NCBI GenBank assembly: GCA_019057375.1
Contig: DXJF01000114.1
Span: 23,787-47,786 of the forward strand
Length of the DNA stretch: 24,000 nucleotides
Origin: Candidatus Heimdallarchaeota archaeon
Lineage (GTDB): Archaea > Asgardarchaeota > Heimdallarchaeia > Heimdallarchaeales > Heimdallarchaeaceae
Direction: 5' to 3'
In this document: positions 3,581 through 19,887 of the stretch, piece after piece
How the letters are laid out: every line of letters begins with the position of its first letter
Numbering within the stretch: position 1 is the stretch's first letter
Program-made: the position numbers and the translations under genes
The notes under the pieces: model-generated
Seen by the model: only the letters and a program-made list of their open reading frames with translations
Told to the model about the DNA's origin: nothing
Databases searched by the model: none

Positions 3581-5181
3581 AATTCAAACAACCCCTCTTT
3601 AATGAGATAACTTATAGCTCCTCTTTGTGGTTGAGTTAGCTTTCTAAGAAATGTATAATCTATTTTTCTAACTTCAAACCTTTCTTCCTTTTCTTCATCT
3701 AAATCAAACTTGTAAGCATCCTTCCTTTTTGTAACTTGAACAGCTCTTGTAACTACAGGAAGGTTATATGGCGATAAAGATTTGTACTTTGCTTTATGAA
3801 CTGCAAATAAGGTTGCAACATGAATTCCCCCTATTTTCTTGAAAACGATAATATCCGCAAAAGCTGGAAGGATTGTTTTGAAATCGTCTCTATACAAAGC
3901 CATATGATTATGTAAAATGACTAACTGATCAATTCCTACACCGTACTCGTTGGCTTCAAACACATATACCTTCTTATCATCTACTTTTACATATCCTTTT
4001 GAGGAAATTCTAGGATTATCATCAAGTAGTTGCCCAAAGGTGGAATATTTTCTTCTAAACACCTTACTTACGTATTCTTCAATTTGTCTCCACCCATATG
4101 CATAAACAGACCAAATATCAGTCCATCTGCTTCTGGATGAGTGCCAATGTTCAACTACAAACTCAGAGTGAGCGTTTTTGTTAACAGCTTGTAAATCCTT
4201 AATCTCATTCCATGAAAACTCTTCAAGGAATTCTAAATCAGACTTAAATGAGAAAAGCTTCTGAAATACTGTTTCCTCATCACTGTACTTTGCAACTAGT
4301 TTATTCATCGCAGCAAGACTAAATTCACCTATAGGAGGTGCAAGGAAAGCTTTCAATTCTTTAGGATAGATAATTGTTTTATCTTCGTGTCTTTTTGGAA
4401 GCTTATACTCATCTTTCTCTAGTAAATAATTAATTGCTTTTTTCTGAATGTAATGTGCAAAGCCCTCACCTATAAGTTCATGGAGATTCTTTTTTCTTGC
4501 AACCTTAGCCCTTTCATTTATCAGATTAACTGCTTCTATTGAAAAATTATTGAAAAGAGTATATTTCCGAGCATCTTCTGGGGGAGTATAGAAATCTTCT
4601 ACTCCTGCTTCTGTAAATAATCGAATTACACCTATCAAATCTTGGAAGTATTGCCAAGCCCAAACATGTTTATTTTGTGAAGCCTTGTTCAATTGAAATA
4701 CATTGTTTGTCATTAGTTCTTTTAGAACTAAATCTAATTGGTATAATTGTGCTAAAATTCCTGGTGAGTTAGACTCAGTTTTTTCATTCATATAAGCATG
4801 AGCAAATGCATGTATCAACATAACTCTTAGAGTTAATTCTTGTTCTTTAGTAAGTTCTTTTGGAGGAACAGAAAGATAAACAAGAGTTGGTAAAGAGTTA
4901 TAGACAGTTTCCTTTCCAGTTGGAAGGAAATCACTAATCCTAGCTGACCGAAGGTTTGTAATTTGTTCAGAAGTGAGTATAGCTTGTGGAGTTCCTGTTA
5001 CCTCTACAACTCTATTAACAGAAATATGCATCTCAGGATTAATGAAAATTAATATTCTATAATTCTCAGGTGTTGCTCCAATAAGAGTTTTAAAGTCAAC
5101 TCTTGCATTGTTGTAAACTTGGATTACGTCACTAAGTTCTTCTTTAAGCATGAAATATACTCTCCCGTAGTATTTGCTCAC
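3577..5181 (-). CDS. Hypothetical 534-aa protein; possibly a catalytically inactive zincin (peptidase-MA-like) fold
   Basis: Long ORF with a GTG start at 5181; an alternative ATG lies at 5151. HAFAH (nt 4798-4812) plus the downstream EGFAHY (nt 4450-4467) resembles the HExxH ... EGxAxY gluzincin signature with the catalytic Glu replaced by Ala. The N-terminal 25 aa are paralogous to the N-terminus of the upstream VWA protein, which supports the GTG start. Confidence 0.75.
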   Translation of the reverse strand: MSKYYGRVYFMLKEELSDVIQVYNNARVDFKTLIGATPENYRILIFINPEMHISVNRVVEVTGTPQAILTSEQITNLRSARISDFLPTGKETVYNSLPTLVYLSVPPKELTKEQELTLRVMLIHAFAHAYMNEKTESNSPGILAQLYQLDLVLKELMTNNVFQLNKASQNKHVWAWQYFQDLIGVIRLFTEAGVEDFYTPPEDARKYTLFNNFSIEAVNLINERAKVARKKNLHELIGEGFAHYIQKKAINYLLEKDEYKLPKRHEDKTIIYPKELKAFLAPPIGEFSLAAMNKLVAKYSDEETVFQKLFSFKSDLEFLEEFSWNEIKDLQAVNKNAHSEFVVEHWHSSRSRWTDIWSVYAYGWRQIEEYVSKVFRRKYSTFGQLLDDNPRISSKGYVKVDDKKVYVFEANEYGVGIDQLVILHNHMALYRDDFKTILPAFADIIVFKKIGGIHVATLFAVHKAKYKSLSPYNLPVVTRAVQVTKRKDAYKFDLDEEKEERFEVRKIDYTFLRKLTQPQRGAISYLIKEGLFEL

Positions 5182-14915: not shown

Positions 14916-16808
14916 ATGTCTCCCTCGTCAAAGGGAGTGATGAGAAGTTATCAGGTGGTGCTCAAGTGTATAGACCAATCCCAAAGAGAAGAGATTAACC
15001 AGAGAATAAAAACATTAGAAGAACAACAAAATCAGCTACTCACCCCTCAAGTTGTCAAGCAAGCAGTAGAACTCTATAGAACCAATCCCAAAGAAGGATT
15101 TTTCACACGCCAACTCTGCAAAAAAGTAGGGAAAAGTCCAAATATTGCAGAAAGTGCTTTCCACTGGTTATACATAGCTATCAAAGGAAAGATAGATAAG
15201 GAGAAGAAAGTGGAAGGGTTATTGAGCTTTCTTTTGAAAAATCCTCAACAGCTGATAGAATGGCTGATTTTTGGTCGTTCCCCTTATACTGAGCGAAGTT
15301 TAGAAAACTATTGGAGACTAAAAAGAAAATATATCATTAACCTCCTCACCAGTACTAGATCCAAAACTGATTCCTATTGGAGAAAAAAACACAAACACAA
15401 CTATTTTGCTGACTTCCTACAATTCAACGACTCCCTTCCTTTTACGTCACAAACTGATATCCTCCAAGCTCTTGATGATGCGCTGTTTTACTACAATCAT
15501 GAATTTTCTCTCATCCCACAGCTTACCAAAAATCAGAAAGCATTTCTGAAAAAACTCCAACTCTTAAAGAAGGAACAAAAAACTGTAGTACCTTTTCTCA
15601 CTTCATGGATCAAAGGTCCTCAAACTTCTCGATGGAAAAGTCTCAAAACTCTCTCCGAACAACTAGCTTCAATTATAGGCAAACCTTCTCGAAAACTCTT
15701 TTCAGTAGTTAGACTGATAATTGTTTTCACACTCTTTGATCATTACATGCAGAGTGTCCCTCAGTTAGTTAAGGCTCTCCCTATTGCTAATGTTGTTCCC
15801 CTACCATTTAAACGAAAAAAGAAAGGAAGATTACCAATCAAATTGCTAATGAAGAAAAACTATGTTATCACCCGTCAAGGGAATGCTCAAGAATTGACTG
15901 ATCAGGTAAAAAAACAAGGATGGACGGAATTTTGTTTTCCGCAAAAGGGAAAACAGCGACTAACAGCTCAAGTTCACTTTCCTAAAAAAGTAATAGGGTA
16001 TATTGGAAATGGTGCACACTTCAAAGTCTTCCAAGTAAGTAGTGGACAAGCTCCTAGTTTCAAACCTAGGGTGGATGTGGTACTCGAAGGAGCTCATGCT
16101 TGCTTCCATTCATCCAAACTTCTTCACCGTTATCTTGCTAATGTTTCTGCAAAGAAAGCTTCTATTCTTGGAGTAGATATTAACCGCTTAGGACAGTATA
16201 TGGTCGTGTTTAACACCCCTATCCCTCTGCCTCCAGATTTACTAAACTTAGCAGCACACTATAAACATCTCAGCACAAAAGTTCTGGATGAGTTGAACAC
16301 AGGTTTTCTCCGTAAAAGAAAAGAGTATGATTCCCACGGGTGTTGTAAACTTAAAGGTGAACTTGACCGTGTTTATACTCGTCGCAGCCGCATCCTTCGC
16401 GAAATCACTTATCTCCTCCCCCACTTTCTTGCTGCAGTAATGGTGAAAAAGAAGTGTAAAGTGTTAAAGATTGAACGTTTAACTGTTGATCCTACCGGCA
16501 CCAGAGGAGCTTTAGCTAAAGCTATTTACACCATGCCCGATAGTTTGTTCATTTACAAAAAAGCAGTGTGGTTAGCTTCTTTGGAGTTAGGGTATGATGT
16601 GCAGTTAGAAGCAGTTCACCCATATCATACCAGCACCATTCATTACGGATGTGGAGGTCTTCTTACTCGTCAAAAAGGTCAGTATGATGTTGCTCCTTGT
16701 AAAAAGTGTGGTCAAAAGGTCCCTACTCATGCTAATGCTGCCAAAAATATTGCTTCCCTTCAAGGTATCTTTCTTCCTCCCGATTCCTTCCCCTCAACGC
16801 ACGTGTAG
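14916..16808 (+). CDS. tnpB: TnpB/Cas12-like RNA-guided nuclease homolog (RuvC plus Zn finger) with an enlarged N-terminal half
   Basis: RuvC-I ILGVDINRLG (D at nt 16176-16178). RuvC-II KVLKIERLTV (E at 16473-16475). Zn finger HYGCGG...CKKCG. RuvC-III-like THANAAKNIA, where the expected Asp is His (CAT at 16728-16730). The N-terminal MRSYQVVLKC resembles the first TnpB WED strand. The ORF-track start is TTG 14856; ATG 14916 (or 14940) is preferred. Confidence 0.85.
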   Translation: MSPSSKGVMRSYQVVLKCIDQSQREEINQRIKTLEEQQNQLLTPQVVKQAVELYRTNPKEGFFTRQLCKKVGKSPNIAESAFHWLYIAIKGKIDKEKKVEGLLSFLLKNPQQLIEWLIFGRSPYTERSLENYWRLKRKYIINLLTSTRSKTDSYWRKKHKHNYFADFLQFNDSLPFTSQTDILQALDDALFYYNHEFSLIPQLTKNQKAFLKKLQLLKKEQKTVVPFLTSWIKGPQTSRWKSLKTLSEQLASIIGKPSRKLFSVVRLIIVFTLFDHYMQSVPQLVKALPIANVVPLPFKRKKKGRLPIKLLMKKNYVITRQGNAQELTDQVKKQGWTEFCFPQKGKQRLTAQVHFPKKVIGYIGNGAHFKVFQVSSGQAPSFKPRVDVVLEGAHACFHSSKLLHRYLANVSAKKASILGVDINRLGQYMVVFNTPIPLPPDLLNLAAHYKHLSTKVLDELNTGFLRKRKEYDSHGCCKLKGELDRVYTRRSRILREITYLLPHFLAAVMVKKKCKVLKIERLTVDPTGTRGALAKAIYTMPDSLFIYKKAVWLASLELGYDVQLEAVHPYHTSTIHYGCGGLLTRQKGQYDVAPCKKCGQKVPTHANAAKNIASLQGIFLPPDSFPSTHV

Positions 16809-16892
16809 GGGACCCATTCAAACGACGGTTAAATAGCCTCTGCAAGTTTAACCAAGTTTCATAACGTGCGCCGACTTCCTCCACGTCAAGGA
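16798..16892 (+). ncRNA. Candidate omega-RNA (reRNA) 3' scaffold plus guide. Only the 3' part is delimited; the true 5' end probably lies inside the tnpB ORF
   Basis: Nested inverted repeats: cgcacgt 16798-16804 pairs with acgtgcg 16864-16870, enclosing ggttaaa 16827-16833 paired with tttaacc 16847-16853. The structure spans the tnpB stop codon and ends 0-2 nt from the tRNA break. This is the expected location and geometry for a TnpB guide RNA. Confidence 0.35.
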
Positions 16893-16922
16893 GGTATCAT
16901 AGCCAGGCTAGATCACTGCCCC
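16869..16922 (-). pseudogene. 5' portion (nt 1-52) of an intronless tRNA-Val(GAC), truncated in the T stem
   Basis: The reverse complement reads GGGGCAG-TG-ATCTAGCCTGGCTATGATA-CCTCC-TTGACGT-GGAGG-AAGTC-GGCG and then diverges (CACGTTATG...). Over positions 1-48 it differs from the intact copy only by one D-loop base, position 37 and the intron. GGCG is complementary to the CCGCC of the fragment at 12513-12535. Confidence 0.8.
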
Positions 16923-16956
16923 CTTTTATTGATAGGTCTTTCTTCGTTCTCTTCTT

Positions 16957-16984
16957 TCTTGTTTTCTTTAAATATTTTTTGTTA
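16957..16984 (-). promoter_or_regulatory. Putative promoter block of the disrupted tRNA-Val (paralog of 14691-14718)
   Basis: tcttgttttctttaaatattttttgtta lies at the same distance (about 35-62 nt) from the tRNA 5' end as the block upstream of the intact gene. Confidence 0.35.
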
Positions 16985-17271
16985 CAAATCTATGTTTCAC
17001 CAATATTTGATATTTCTCTCTTTTTGGTTCATTAAAATCTTCTTTTTTTTCATTCTAATTATTAATTTGGTTTCTTCTAATTTGCTCGTTTTCTTTAATA
17101 TTTCCCCCTTAAGATACCATTTTGTCAAACTTTCGTTTTTTTCCGACTCAAAATCATATTCCAATCCTTGTTTCTTTTTTCAATATCACTAGGTAACATT
17201 TATAAAAACTTCAGCAGACAATCTATCAAAGGAATAGTGTTAAACTATTCTGTCCACTCGAGTGATTTATT

Positions 17272-19887
17272 ATGGATAAAAGTGTAGCAATGTCTTTAAA
17301 AATCGTTGGTTTTCTCCTTATTCTTACTTCTGCCTGGGTACCTATATATACAATTACATTTGATTCTACAACAACTGAACCTGAACCAATTATTCTTGTT
17401 GGTTCTCAGAGCATTACTGGAGTCCTTCATAATGTATATTACGAAAATAATCTAGCATTTGTAGTAGATTCAGATACAGGGTTAAATATTGTAAATGTAA
17501 CTGATGCAACAACACCTGAGATTATTGGGACATACAATATTGCAAATGGGGCCAATGGTATATTCGTGAAGGATAACTATGCTTACATTGCAGATACGGT
17601 CACAGGATTACAGATTGTTAATATTACTGACCCTACTTCACCAACACAAGTTGGTACATATAGTATTACAGGAGGGGCCACTGATGTATTTGTATCAGGA
17701 AATTATACTTACATTGTAGATTCAACAATAGGGTTTCAAATACTAAATATTAGTGACCCAACAACACCAACACAAGAGGGTGTATTTAGTATTTCAGGGG
17801 AAATAAACAGTTTAATTGTAAAAGATGAATTCGCATATATTGTAGATTCAGTAACTGGTTTACGTATTCTAAATATTACTGACGCAACTTTACCAAGCTT
17901 GGTTGCAACCTTCGATGTAAACGAACCAGTATATGATGTAGCTGTTTTAGGAAGTTATGCTTACATTGTTGGTGAAAATATTGGCATACAAGTAGTAAAT
18001 ATAAGTAATCCTCAATCTCCCGTTCTCACTAGTTCTTATTATATTGAAGGAAATGTCAATGGAATACATATTGAAAATGAACATGCATATATTGTTGATT
18101 CGACTGTTGGAATACAAATTGTTTCAATTATAAATCCAGAAGAATTAACTATTGTAGGCTCACAGGAAATTACAGGAGAGATATATGGAATATTCGTAAA
18201 AGATGGATATGCATATGTTGTAGGATCAGATCTAGAAATCTTTATAGTAAGACCCAGATCTGAGTATGATTCATCAGGTACACTAGTACGAATCTTCGGT
18301 TTCAAAATCGATTATAAAATGTTAACTTACAGTAGTGCAAACAACCTCGCTCAAGAACGATTCTTGGAAGCAGAAACACCCAGTAGTGTTGTTATTCTTG
18401 CTGCAGCTTTGTGGTTTATACTAATCTTTGCTACAGCTGCTGTTGTTTTGGGTCAGGTTTTTCAAAGTGGTGGTTTCAAATCGAGGGGCACTATTGCAGA
18501 TATTGCTGCAGGAATTCTTTTACTTTTGGCTCTGGTAGTTGCTATTTTATCAATGAGCAGATCAATGATTATAGCAGCAGAAAGATACCAAGCTTTAGTA
18601 ACGGGACAAACTGCAGCCTCAACGGTGCCTCTTACGTTTAACCCGAATGATTCTACACCAGCTTACTTTGACATTGGTTTAACAGGTTCAGTTGGACCAG
18701 GATTCTACATATTCACCATTGGAATATTAATGATGGTAACTGGTATCTTTCTACCAGTCAATTGGCAACAACCAACCAGCTCCAAAATGTCAAGAAGAAT
18801 TGGTGATACTGGTGTTCTTAGATGGGTTAAAAACATAGCATCATTAAGATTAACTACTTATGTTACTAGAAGATTATTAACACTTATTCCTCTCTTCATT
18901 GCAATATGTGTGATGACATTTGTAATGGTAAACGGAATGGGTGACCCAGTTGCATTATTGCTACTTGGAAAACAAAGAGTAACGGAACAAGATAGGATAA
19001 ATCTTACTAAAAAACTTGGTCTAGATCAGCCCATTTATATTCAATTCGTTACTTGGTTCTATAACCTTATACGAGGGGACATGGGTATAAGTTTCCAATC
19101 AGGTCAATCAATTAATAATATGATTGGTGGATTAATTTGGGAAACTTTAAAGCTTCAGTTAGCATCATTTGTGCTAGCTTTGCTTATTTCGATACCTTTG
19201 GGTGTTTTAGCAGCAAAGAATCAAAATACTTGGATTGACTCAGCTGCAAGTTCTTTCGCACTCTTAGGTCTCTCAATGCCAATTTTTGTGTTTGGTTTAT
19301 TAATGATTTATATATTCAGCGGATATGGTTTAGGATGGTTCCCAGCTGCAAAAGCTCACCGAATACCAGCGCCCACGCCTGTGTTTAGTCAGACGAACTG
19401 GCAATTATTCTGGTCAGGGCAGTGGGGAGGTGTTGGTGGATTTTGGAATAATGTAGGTGTAAGATTAGGGGATTCACTCCTTCATATGGCTTTACCAACT
19501 ATAACTTTGACATTTGCTTTCTTAGCCCTATATACTAGGTTAGTTAGGGCAACAATGCTTGAAGTTCTTAGACAAGATTATGTCTTATCTGCAAGAGCAA
19601 ATGGAATATCTGAAAGAACCATTACATGGAGACATGCATTCAGAAATGTTTTGATCCCTGTAGTAACCTATGTTGGGTTGTTTATGGCTACAGCTTTAGC
19701 TGGAGCTCCAATTACTGAAACACTCTTCACATGGCCGGGTTTAGGATTCAAATATGTAGGTGCGGTGCTTCTTTTGGACTTCCCGATGGTCTTAGGTACG
19801 ACGGCGATTCTGACTTTACTTATCTTACTAGGTAACTTGATAACAGATATTGCTTATGTTGCGGTAGATCCGCGTATAGAACTATGA
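17272..19887 (+). CDS. oppB: Fusion protein: signal/TM, 7x LVIVD-repeat beta-propeller, 3 TM helices, then an Opp/Dpp-type ABC permease (OppB/DppB family)
   Basis: Uninterrupted 871-aa ORF. Residues ~43-326 hold seven ~42-aa repeats (YAYIxDsxxGLqIvNItDPtxP). Residues ~520-871 match DppB/OppB (YVTRRLLTLIPLFIAICVMTFVMVNGMGDP, EAA-loop region LRQDYVLSARANGISERTI, C-terminal ITDIAYVAVDPRIE). Confidence 0.9.
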   Translation: MDKSVAMSLKIVGFLLILTSAWVPIYTITFDSTTTEPEPIILVGSQSITGVLHNVYYENNLAFVVDSDTGLNIVNVTDATTPEIIGTYNIANGANGIFVKDNYAYIADTVTGLQIVNITDPTSPTQVGTYSITGGATDVFVSGNYTYIVDSTIGFQILNISDPTTPTQEGVFSISGEINSLIVKDEFAYIVDSVTGLRILNITDATLPSLVATFDVNEPVYDVAVLGSYAYIVGENIGIQVVNISNPQSPVLTSSYYIEGNVNGIHIENEHAYIVDSTVGIQIVSIINPEELTIVGSQEITGEIYGIFVKDGYAYVVGSDLEIFIVRPRSEYDSSGTLVRIFGFKIDYKMLTYSSANNLAQERFLEAETPSSVVILAAALWFILIFATAAVVLGQVFQSGGFKSRGTIADIAAGILLLLALVVAILSMSRSMIIAAERYQALVTGQTAASTVPLTFNPNDSTPAYFDIGLTGSVGPGFYIFTIGILMMVTGIFLPVNWQQPTSSKMSRRIGDTGVLRWVKNIASLRLTTYVTRRLLTLIPLFIAICVMTFVMVNGMGDPVALLLLGKQRVTEQDRINLTKKLGLDQPIYIQFVTWFYNLIRGDMGISFQSGQSINNMIGGLIWETLKLQLASFVLALLISIPLGVLAAKNQNTWIDSAASSFALLGLSMPIFVFGLLMIYIFSGYGLGWFPAAKAHRIPAPTPVFSQTNWQLFWSGQWGGVGGFWNNVGVRLGDSLLHMALPTITLTFAFLALYTRLVRATMLEVLRQDYVLSARANGISERTITWRHAFRNVLIPVVTYVGLFMATALAGAPITETLFTWPGLGFKYVGAVLLLDFPMVLGTTAILTLLILLGNLITDIAYVAVDPRIEL
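17398..18249 (+). repeat. Seven tandem LVIVD-type coding repeats (~126 bp period) inside the permease fusion gene
   Basis: The repeated peptide blocks are AFVVDSDTGLNIVNVTD, AYIADTVTGLQIVNITD, TYIVDSTIGFQILNISD, AYIVDSVTGLRILNITD, AYIVGENIGIQVVNISN, AYIVDSTVGIQIVSIIN and AYVVGSDLEIFIV. Confidence 0.75.

Follow-up and report, generated by a model that had tools for sequence, protein, structure and literature searches.

The stretch of DNA analysed here (the window) comprises 24,000 nucleotides of a Candidatus Heimdallarchaeota archaeon (contig DXJF01000114.1, positions 23,787 to 47,786) and carries an intact gene, tnpB, for an unusually large TnpB-like protein, accompanied by the remnant of a tnpA gene, an RNA scaffold-like region and two fragments of a disrupted tRNA-Val gene (Table 1). 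The longest form of the reading frame called for tnpB (14856-16808, plus strand) encodes 650 amino acids (aa). The N-termini of relatives, which begin MVTQ, make the TTG at 14880 the likely start, giving 642 aa, and an ATG at 14916 would give a 630-aa form. Residue numbers below refer to the last of these, so that D421 and E520 correspond to D441 and E540 in the initial annotation of the sequence. In the AlphaFold2 model of the protein (mean predicted local distance difference test score 86, predicted template-modelling score 0.67), secondary structure assignment by DSSP places a strand at residues 8-17, then an all-helical block at residues 21-293, and then the WED/RuvC strands (308-432) and the zinc-finger region. 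The large size of the protein is thus explained by a helical REC-like insertion of about 280 aa, which matches the roughly 300 extra residues that the initial annotation had counted at this place. The best Foldseek matches to the model are Cas12f proteins and the TnpB proteins of ISFba1 and ISDra2, with E values of 5e-9 to 2e-6. The corresponding TM-scores are low (0.3-0.4), because the REC region differs from those of known structures. Pfam gave only a sub-threshold match of the window protein to the TNB domain (PF07282; 22.9 bits against a cutoff of 26.3), and the same family is a precomputed match in many of the homologs.

Most of the hallmarks of TnpB and Cas12 proteins are present. There is an RNase H-fold RuvC domain with the RuvC-I Asp (D421) and the RuvC-II Glu (E520), and a TNB zinc finger (H576, C579, C595 and C598) lies between RuvC-II and RuvC-III. 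The hallmark that is absent is the RuvC-III Asp of the D-x-N-A-A motif: its place is taken by His605, encoded by a CAT codon, and the remainder of the motif, N-A-A-x-N-I, is retained. When a profile of 30 family members was aligned with solved Cas12f and TnpB chains, the N-T-H-x-N-A-A of the family was superimposed on the N-A-D-x-N-A-A of CnCas12f1 and of other such chains, with His605 falling on the D of NADxNAA in 8hr5, 9nzp and 9nzq. His605 therefore occupies the column of the RuvC-III Asp. The initial annotation had proposed a protein of the TnpB/Cas12 lineage with a split RuvC domain, an HCCC-type zinc finger and a His in place of the final catalytic Asp, and the structural matches, the profile alignment and the conservation of these residues bear it out on each count.

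The substitution is widely shared. A homolog search returned 123 proteins, most of them 620-650 aa long and 41-100% identical, all of which come from Heimdallarchaeota metagenome-assembled genomes (MAGs) where a source is named. Every homolog that retains the motif (about 100 proteins) reads (N/P)-T-H-x-N-A-A, with a variable residue after the His. A profile search covering 1.84 billion cluster representatives extended the family to 335 relatives, the named ones among which belong to Heimdall, Hodarchaeales, Odin and Loki archaea; some members of the family reach 1200-1800 aa. Distant conservation was read from an alignment of 81 representatives with less than 50% mutual identity. Here the RuvC-I position is Asp in 100% of sequences and the RuvC-II position is Glu in 84% and Asp in 16%, while the RuvC-III position is His in 96% (78/81) and Gln in the other three. 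The three Cys residues of the zinc finger are 99-100% conserved and the first ligand, at position 576, is His in 81% and Cys in 19%. The ratio of nonsynonymous to synonymous substitution rates (dN/dS) between the window tnpB and ten relatives is 0.11-0.14, which shows that the gene is under strong purifying selection. The initial annotation had wanted homologs aligned to see whether the His is conserved or unique; it is conserved and is not peculiar to the window copy. Judged by these alignments, the RuvC-III His is an ancient and conserved trait of a large Asgard family, and not damage.

The organisation of full-length relatives places the gene in a known type of mobile element. In these relatives a tnpA gene, encoding a serine recombinase of about 200-220 aa with a MerR-like helix-turn-helix (HTH) domain, is followed by tnpB and then by a conserved 3' RNA scaffold, and the left end is also conserved. 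The IS607-type tnpA is found, for example, at loci L007, L013, L020 and L033-35, and the Resolvase Pfam match of the L019 TnpA has an E value of 9.6e-15. The relatives are located at many different sites, with several copies per genome. Across 53 loci the DNA remains highly conserved for about 60 nt 3' of the tnpB stop codon and then conservation stops sharply at ...CAAGTTTCATAACGTG-YG-T, beyond which the sequences are unrelated. A TnpB omega RNA would be expected to have its scaffold/guide boundary at just such a drop, and in terms of DNA conservation the family thereby displays the hallmark of OMEGA systems, a conserved scaffold that overlaps and follows the 3' end of tnpB. Two hairpins of the scaffold, CCCCTC/GAGGGG and GGTTARA/TYTAACC, are conserved with a few compensatory changes. 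At the element junctions a dinucleotide covaries clade by clade, with AC-[CG or TG]-T on the left and GTG-[CG or TG]-T on the right and with separate CG and TG clades. This match between left and right is exactly what serine-recombinase crossover predicts, and it implies a target or target-adjacent motif-like consensus of AC-YG-T. On the basis of the tnpA genes, the ends and the covarying crossover dinucleotide of the relatives, we assign the family to the IS607 type. The adjacent MerR-HTH serine recombinase that is characteristic of IS607 is intact in relatives and reduced to a C-terminal remnant in the window. No CRISPR array and no tandem or spaced repeats were detected in the window.

A further feature of the scaffold alignment concerns the codons of the N-A-A residues. 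RNAalifold pairs these (AUGCUGC) with the last bases of the scaffold (GUGCGU), at columns 65-71 and 204-209 of alignment A3 (about 16735-16741 and 16866-16871 in the window). The changes in this pairing, from GC to GU in 13 sequences, affect one side only and leave the pair intact. It may represent a guide-adjacent stem, or it may have arisen by chance.

The window copy retains its right end (16853-16870), the left-end motif is absent throughout the window, and tnpA is represented by only about 34 C-terminal codons, starting at about 14731. Its history can be read from related loci. Locus L079 is an empty site: it aligns to window positions 10974-12535 (94% identity) and 16869-17378 (96%), the first of these segments corresponding to L079 positions 1-1562 and ending inside the tRNA. 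Window positions 12536-16868 (4.33 kb) are therefore an insertion in the T-stem of a tRNA-Val gene, at GGCGGATTCGAAC-CG-CCGACTTCC, and the right junction, GTG-CG-CCGACTT, is consistent with the AC-YG target model. From left to right the insertion contains a NosD-like gene, an intron-containing tRNA-Val(GAC) gene, the 62-nt upstream region of that tRNA gene, 11 nt of filler, the tnpA remnant, tnpB and the scaffold. The disrupted gene itself is intronless, and when metagenomes were scanned with its fragment, intact tRNA-Val(GAC) genes that likewise lack an intron were recovered. Loci L086 and L087, which share 94% identity with the window in their flanks, carry NosD and a tRNA-Val gene with an intron, but not tnpB. 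The tRNA gene at these two loci is chimeric, with a 3' part and intron like those of the complete copy in the window and a D-loop and promoter like those of the fragment, which fits loss of the insertion sequence (IS) by recombination between two tRNA copies. By these alignments, the target of the window copy was evidently AC-CG-C within the T-stem of a tRNA-Val(GAC) gene without an intron, and the copy later lost its left end and most of tnpA. The predicted 20-nt guide of the window copy, CGCCGACTTCCTCCACGTCA, would accordingly be drawn from the 5' fragment of that gene. The initial annotation was thus right that the guide region matches a tRNA gene; the match exists because the IS landed in tRNA-Val, and it is ordinary TnpB biology.

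Table 1. Features of the tnpB locus, in window coordinates (residue numbers as in the 630-aa form).
Feature	Position	Strand	Basis
tnpB, large TnpB-like protein	14880..16808	+	Open reading frame, homologs, AlphaFold2 model, Foldseek, dN/dS
All-helical REC-like insertion, residues 21-293	14976..15794	+	DSSP of AlphaFold2 model
RuvC-I Asp codon, D421 in GVDINR	16176..16178	+	Invariant in 30/30 family members and 81/81 distant representatives
RuvC-II Glu codon, E520 in KIERL	16473..16475	+	Family-invariant; aligned with RuvC-II region of CnCas12f1
Zinc finger H576-C579...C595-C598 (TNB domain)	16641..16709	+	Ligand conservation; weak Pfam PF07282 match
CAT codon, His605 in THANAAKNIA, RuvC-III Asp position	16728..16730	+	Profile alignment; homolog conservation
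3' part of omega-RNA-like scaffold	16735..16868	+	Overlaps tnpB end plus 60 nt of non-coding DNA; conservation in 53 loci
CG dinucleotide common to right end and target; putative serine-recombinase crossover site	16869..16870	+	Empty site GAAC-CG-CCGACTT; covariation in relatives
3' remnant of IS607-type tnpA, about 34 codons (...QVDKFAENMDKLAISFARSINRQQRGK...)	14731..14847	+	Aligns with C-terminus of relatives' MerR-HTH serine-recombinase TnpA
TATA-like box (TTTAAAAA) upstream of tnpB; putative promoter element	14843..14850	+	Kept as TTTAAATA at equal distance in relatives
Disrupted intronless tRNA-Val(GAC), 5' fragment of about 54 nt; plus strand is the guide-template region	16869..16922	-	96% identical to intact L079 tRNA-Val locus
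Same intronless tRNA-Val, displaced 3' fragment (CCA end to T-loop)	12513..12535	-	L079 alignment; direct repeat D5
Beta-helix (NosD-like) protein gene, inside the 4.33-kb insertion	12587..14542	+	Pfam Beta_helix/NosD; same locus without tnpB in L086 and L088
Complete tRNA-Val(GAC) with 31-nt anticodon-loop intron and different T-stem (GCAAG)	14549..14657	-	ARAGORN with introns allowed
Upstream (promoter) region of intact tRNA-Val, repeated at 16920-16984	14658..14719	-	Direct repeats D1 and D2; alignment

Two simpler accounts of the insertion were considered and dropped. A tandem tRNA pair with a deletion does not accommodate L079, which shows a 4.33-kb insertion in one tRNA, or L086, which has NosD and the intron-containing tRNA without tnpB. 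An integrase-type att model for the NosD segment fails to account for how far the 'a-type' tRNA sequence extends. The NosD-like segment is bracketed, in the manner of att sites, by 23-nt direct repeats of the tRNA 3' end (12513-12535 and 14549-14571; 87% identical), and no integrase is present. At L088 the NosD island holds an extra gene for a 580-aa protein. Detection of the tRNA genes depended on the search used: neither default ARAGORN nor Rfam detected a tRNA or an RNA family in the window, tRNA-Val was recovered only with intron-aware ARAGORN, and ARAGORN called no complete tRNA at 16869..16922. An orthologous tRNA-Val at L082 (3130-3180) and L084 (reverse strand) has an insert of about 31 nt in the T-loop, GGCGGA[CTTTCAG...ACAAAA]TTTGAACCGCC. 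The insert is at a non-canonical intron position, next to the IS site of the window, and ARAGORN calls no gene there. Downstream of the locus, at 17272-19887, lies a gene for an 871-aa protein in which LVIVD/beta-propeller repeats are fused to an ABC-transporter permease; the orthologous permeases in L086 and L088 are only 587-592 aa long and lack the N-terminal repeat domain.

We favour, with some reserve, the view that the window gene encodes an Asgard IS607-family TnpB with a long-standing D-E-H triad, an [H/C]CCC zinc finger and a large helical REC region, and that this protein is probably an active RNA-guided nuclease. The protein would still bind its own omega RNA, the guide of which would be transcribed from the flanking tRNA fragment, and the resulting ribonucleoprotein (RNP) would most likely recognise targets that are flanked by AC-YG and share the sequence of the element's flank. 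Three considerations make catalytic competence of the D-E-H site probable: selection has acted on all three positions over long times, the family is still carried by transposons, and other RNase H-fold nucleases use His to bind metal at the corresponding position, as in the DEDH tetrad of Argonaute. Canonical TnpB is known to promote homing and retention of its element by recombination after cutting empty alleles. If the D-E-H site is active, the RNP would cut the uninterrupted, intronless tRNA-Val allele (i.e. the empty site), and the insertion would be retained, or homed in, by recombination. The window copy has itself lost the capacity to transpose, and the intron-containing tRNA-Val gene upstream of it provides the tRNA function. 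The initial annotation had offered recent inactivation, a TldR-type repressor or a rearranged active site as explanations for the His. The last of these is the best supported, in so far as the active site is altered; the alteration is a substitution of Asp by His at the same position and not, as a rearrangement would imply, a relocated residue.

Several observations weigh against an active nuclease encoded by a mobile element. Literature searches found no biochemical test of any D-E-H (His-variant) TnpB. The fold predicted for a single scaffold sequence is unexceptional (z = 0) and covariation within the scaffold is sparse. A search for near-identical paralogs, as a sign of recent mobility, found none: there were no copies above 94% identity, and the best identity within a genome was about 87-91%. 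Finally, some relatives are fixed in conserved synteny without tnpA, an arrangement that would also fit a non-nuclease role in the service of the host.

The strongest competing explanation, which we nevertheless regard as rather unlikely, is that every member of the His clade is a nuclease-dead, RNA-guided DNA binder that aids the transposon or the host in the manner of Cas12k, Cas12m or TldR. In that case the change from Asp to His would have ended catalysis, leaving the conserved D, E and H with no role beyond the binding of nucleic acid or metal. The canonical Asp is indeed missing throughout the clade, some subfamilies consist of immobile orthologs that keep their synteny next to tRNA genes and have a conserved segment of guide length (see below), and no recent transposition was detected. 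However, dead derivatives that are already known have as a rule lost several of the catalytic residues or else the C-terminus (PMC10691335), whereas here D and E/D are retained in 100% and His in 96% of sequences over deep divergence, and the main family keeps tnpA, its ends and many insertion sites. It is a good deal less probable that another acidic residue has moved into the catalytic site and that His605 is a bystander. A relocated Glu has been documented in other TnpB clades (PMC10691335), and two candidates exist in the present family: D591, located in the loop of the zinc finger and 85% conserved, and E482, which does not vary within the close family. Neither is universal across the 81 representatives, where the first position reads D/H/N/E/R/Q and the second E/Q, and no alternative acidic residue is universal either, in contrast to the 96% conservation of His605.

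The position of some relatives beside tRNA genes deserves separate mention. Divergent subfamilies (37-43% identity) are fixed in conserved synteny next to such genes. In one group (L065, L067, L070, L077 and L078, at about 4435-4570 in each, with L069 partial), orthologous D-E-H TnpBs that are 58-88% identical within the group lack tnpA, and in five or six MAGs a gene for a RING-finger membrane protein is followed by tnpB, about 20 nt of tRNA-like sequence and a complete tRNA-Cys(GCA), in that order. The 20 nt that follow the scaffold (AYGCATRGCC.CT.TGCTAA) resemble the D-arm/anticodon stem of tRNA-Cys. This segment starts directly after an AC-CG motif and is about 80% conserved between genomes, and the next 30-60 nt cannot be aligned. 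At L062 (about 4330-4600) the sequence after the scaffold is that of a tRNA-Pro anticodon loop/stem, and a nearby complete gene has an intron at that very spot. At L058 (about 4445-4620) a piece of tRNA-Leu follows the scaffold end and a complete tRNA lies nearby. At L063, L068, L071 and L076 the downstream flank contains T-arm-like sequence, and there is a tRNA-Asn at about 2340-2419. It is conceivable, although we would give the idea little weight, that some Asgard D-E-H TnpBs are fixed RNA-guided modules directed at tRNA genes, either as a 'cleave-and-rescue' or homing-only selfish locus or as an RNA-guided regulator of tRNA genes. The guide of such a module may derive from the uninterrupted form of the tRNA gene, the linked functional copy being resistant by virtue of its intron and/or of changes in its stem. 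The window (tRNA-Val) and the syntenic tRNA-Cys, tRNA-Pro and tRNA-Leu orthologs fit this layout; in the orthologs the guide-length tRNA-like segment alone stays conserved.

For the window copy itself, domestication as a TldR-like regulator of the neighbouring tRNA-Val gene, which the initial annotation had envisaged as repression of the adjacent tRNA promoter, is very improbable. The copy is certainly immobilised, without a left end and with only a remnant of tnpA; its guide region is antisense to tRNA-Val, and the intact tRNA-Val gene lies about 200 bp upstream of tnpB. The guide, however, is simply the sequence that flanks an insertion in a tRNA gene. It matches the intact, intron-containing tRNA-Val over no more than 13 contiguous nt; the first guide positions are mismatched and the intron then breaks the match, so that this gene should not be targeted. 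The matching part lies in the gene body and not in the promoter. The arrangement of tnpB and tRNA is also strain-specific, the closely related L079 and L086 being without tnpB, and the family is transposon-borne. The suggestion that the gene is a recently inactivated pseudogene, or that the base at 16728 was miscalled, is invited by a CAT codon one substitution away from GAT, but can be discarded, since the His is found in every related protein examined, from 100% to below 40% identity, and the reading frame is intact and under purifying selection (dN/dS about 0.13).

A class of TnpB in which the RuvC-III Asp is replaced by His has already been described, and the window family adds a further member to it. 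Altae-Tran et al. 2023 (PMC10691335) reported major TnpB clades with this replacement, argued from conservation that they are active, and described serine-recombinase association and restriction to archaea at clade level for such variants. The RIIIr-4/MazE-TnpB branch and the archaeal RIIIr-6/Ser-6 branches resemble the window family in the same-position change from Asp to His with retention of the RuvC-I D and the RuvC-II E, in archaeal distribution and, for some branches, in serine-recombinase association (PMC10691335). The window family differs from the RIIIr-type clades in its size of 620-650 aa with a REC of about 280 aa. In addition, RIIIr-4 is described as lacking a C4 zinc finger, whereas the window family keeps an [H/C]CCC finger; it may belong to another of the His-bearing branches. 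Four giant relatives from Odin and Hodarchaeales archaea (P0174, P0179, P0184 and P0155; 1300-1800 aa) carry the same motif as NTH-x-(N/S)AA and have weak MazE/AbrB-like matches in a long N-terminal extension, as well as proline-rich C-terminal tails. These matches echo the MazE association of RIIIr-4, and the giant proteins may be fusions related to the MazE-TnpB association of the literature. The Cas1H-Asgard TnpB groups of the same study have, 3' of tnpB, a hypervariable stretch and after it a conserved GTTCACTCA motif, and they are associated with aCas1 (PMC10691335). In contrast, the neighbours of the window family are serine recombinases and not Cas1, and the GTTCACTCA motif was found at 0/53 loci within 120 nt of the right end.

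Full-length relatives share with the IS607 family the gene order, the left and right ends, the 2-bp crossover dinucleotide at both junctions and a guide in the right flank, whereas the window copy departs from it in having no left end and only about 34 tnpA codons, and in a TnpB that is about 200 aa larger than usual and has His in RuvC-III. Cas12f (CnCas12f1, 8hr5; AsCas12f, 8j3r) and the ISDra2 and ISFba1 TnpBs provide the best fold matches and the best profile matches over RuvC-II, the zinc finger and RuvC-III, and Cas12f is also similar in size to the window protein. Unlike Cas12f and type V CRISPR-Cas systems, however, the window has no CRISPR array, and its protein has a different REC and His for Asp. 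TldR proteins are likewise TnpB-derived with an altered RuvC-III, and the window copy is immobile. The window protein nevertheless retains D and E and has no C-terminal truncation, only one of its three catalytic positions having changed, and that one being conserved as His. Moreover, its guide is an insertion flank rather than a conserved promoter-matching guide, and the locus is polymorphic among close strains.

The locus provides a clean case of a tRNA gene disrupted by a transposon while an intron-bearing copy serves as backup, and both empty-site and deleted haplotypes exist with which it can be compared. More broadly, a D-E-H active site is shown here to be deeply conserved across Asgard archaea, in TnpBs of unusual size that are still tied to IS607-type elements. 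If this site cuts DNA, the range of catalytic sites known among TnpB/Cas12-type enzymes would widen, perhaps to include another metal preference. If instead the D-E-H proteins only bind, they would constitute a large natural reservoir of RNA-guided DNA binders.

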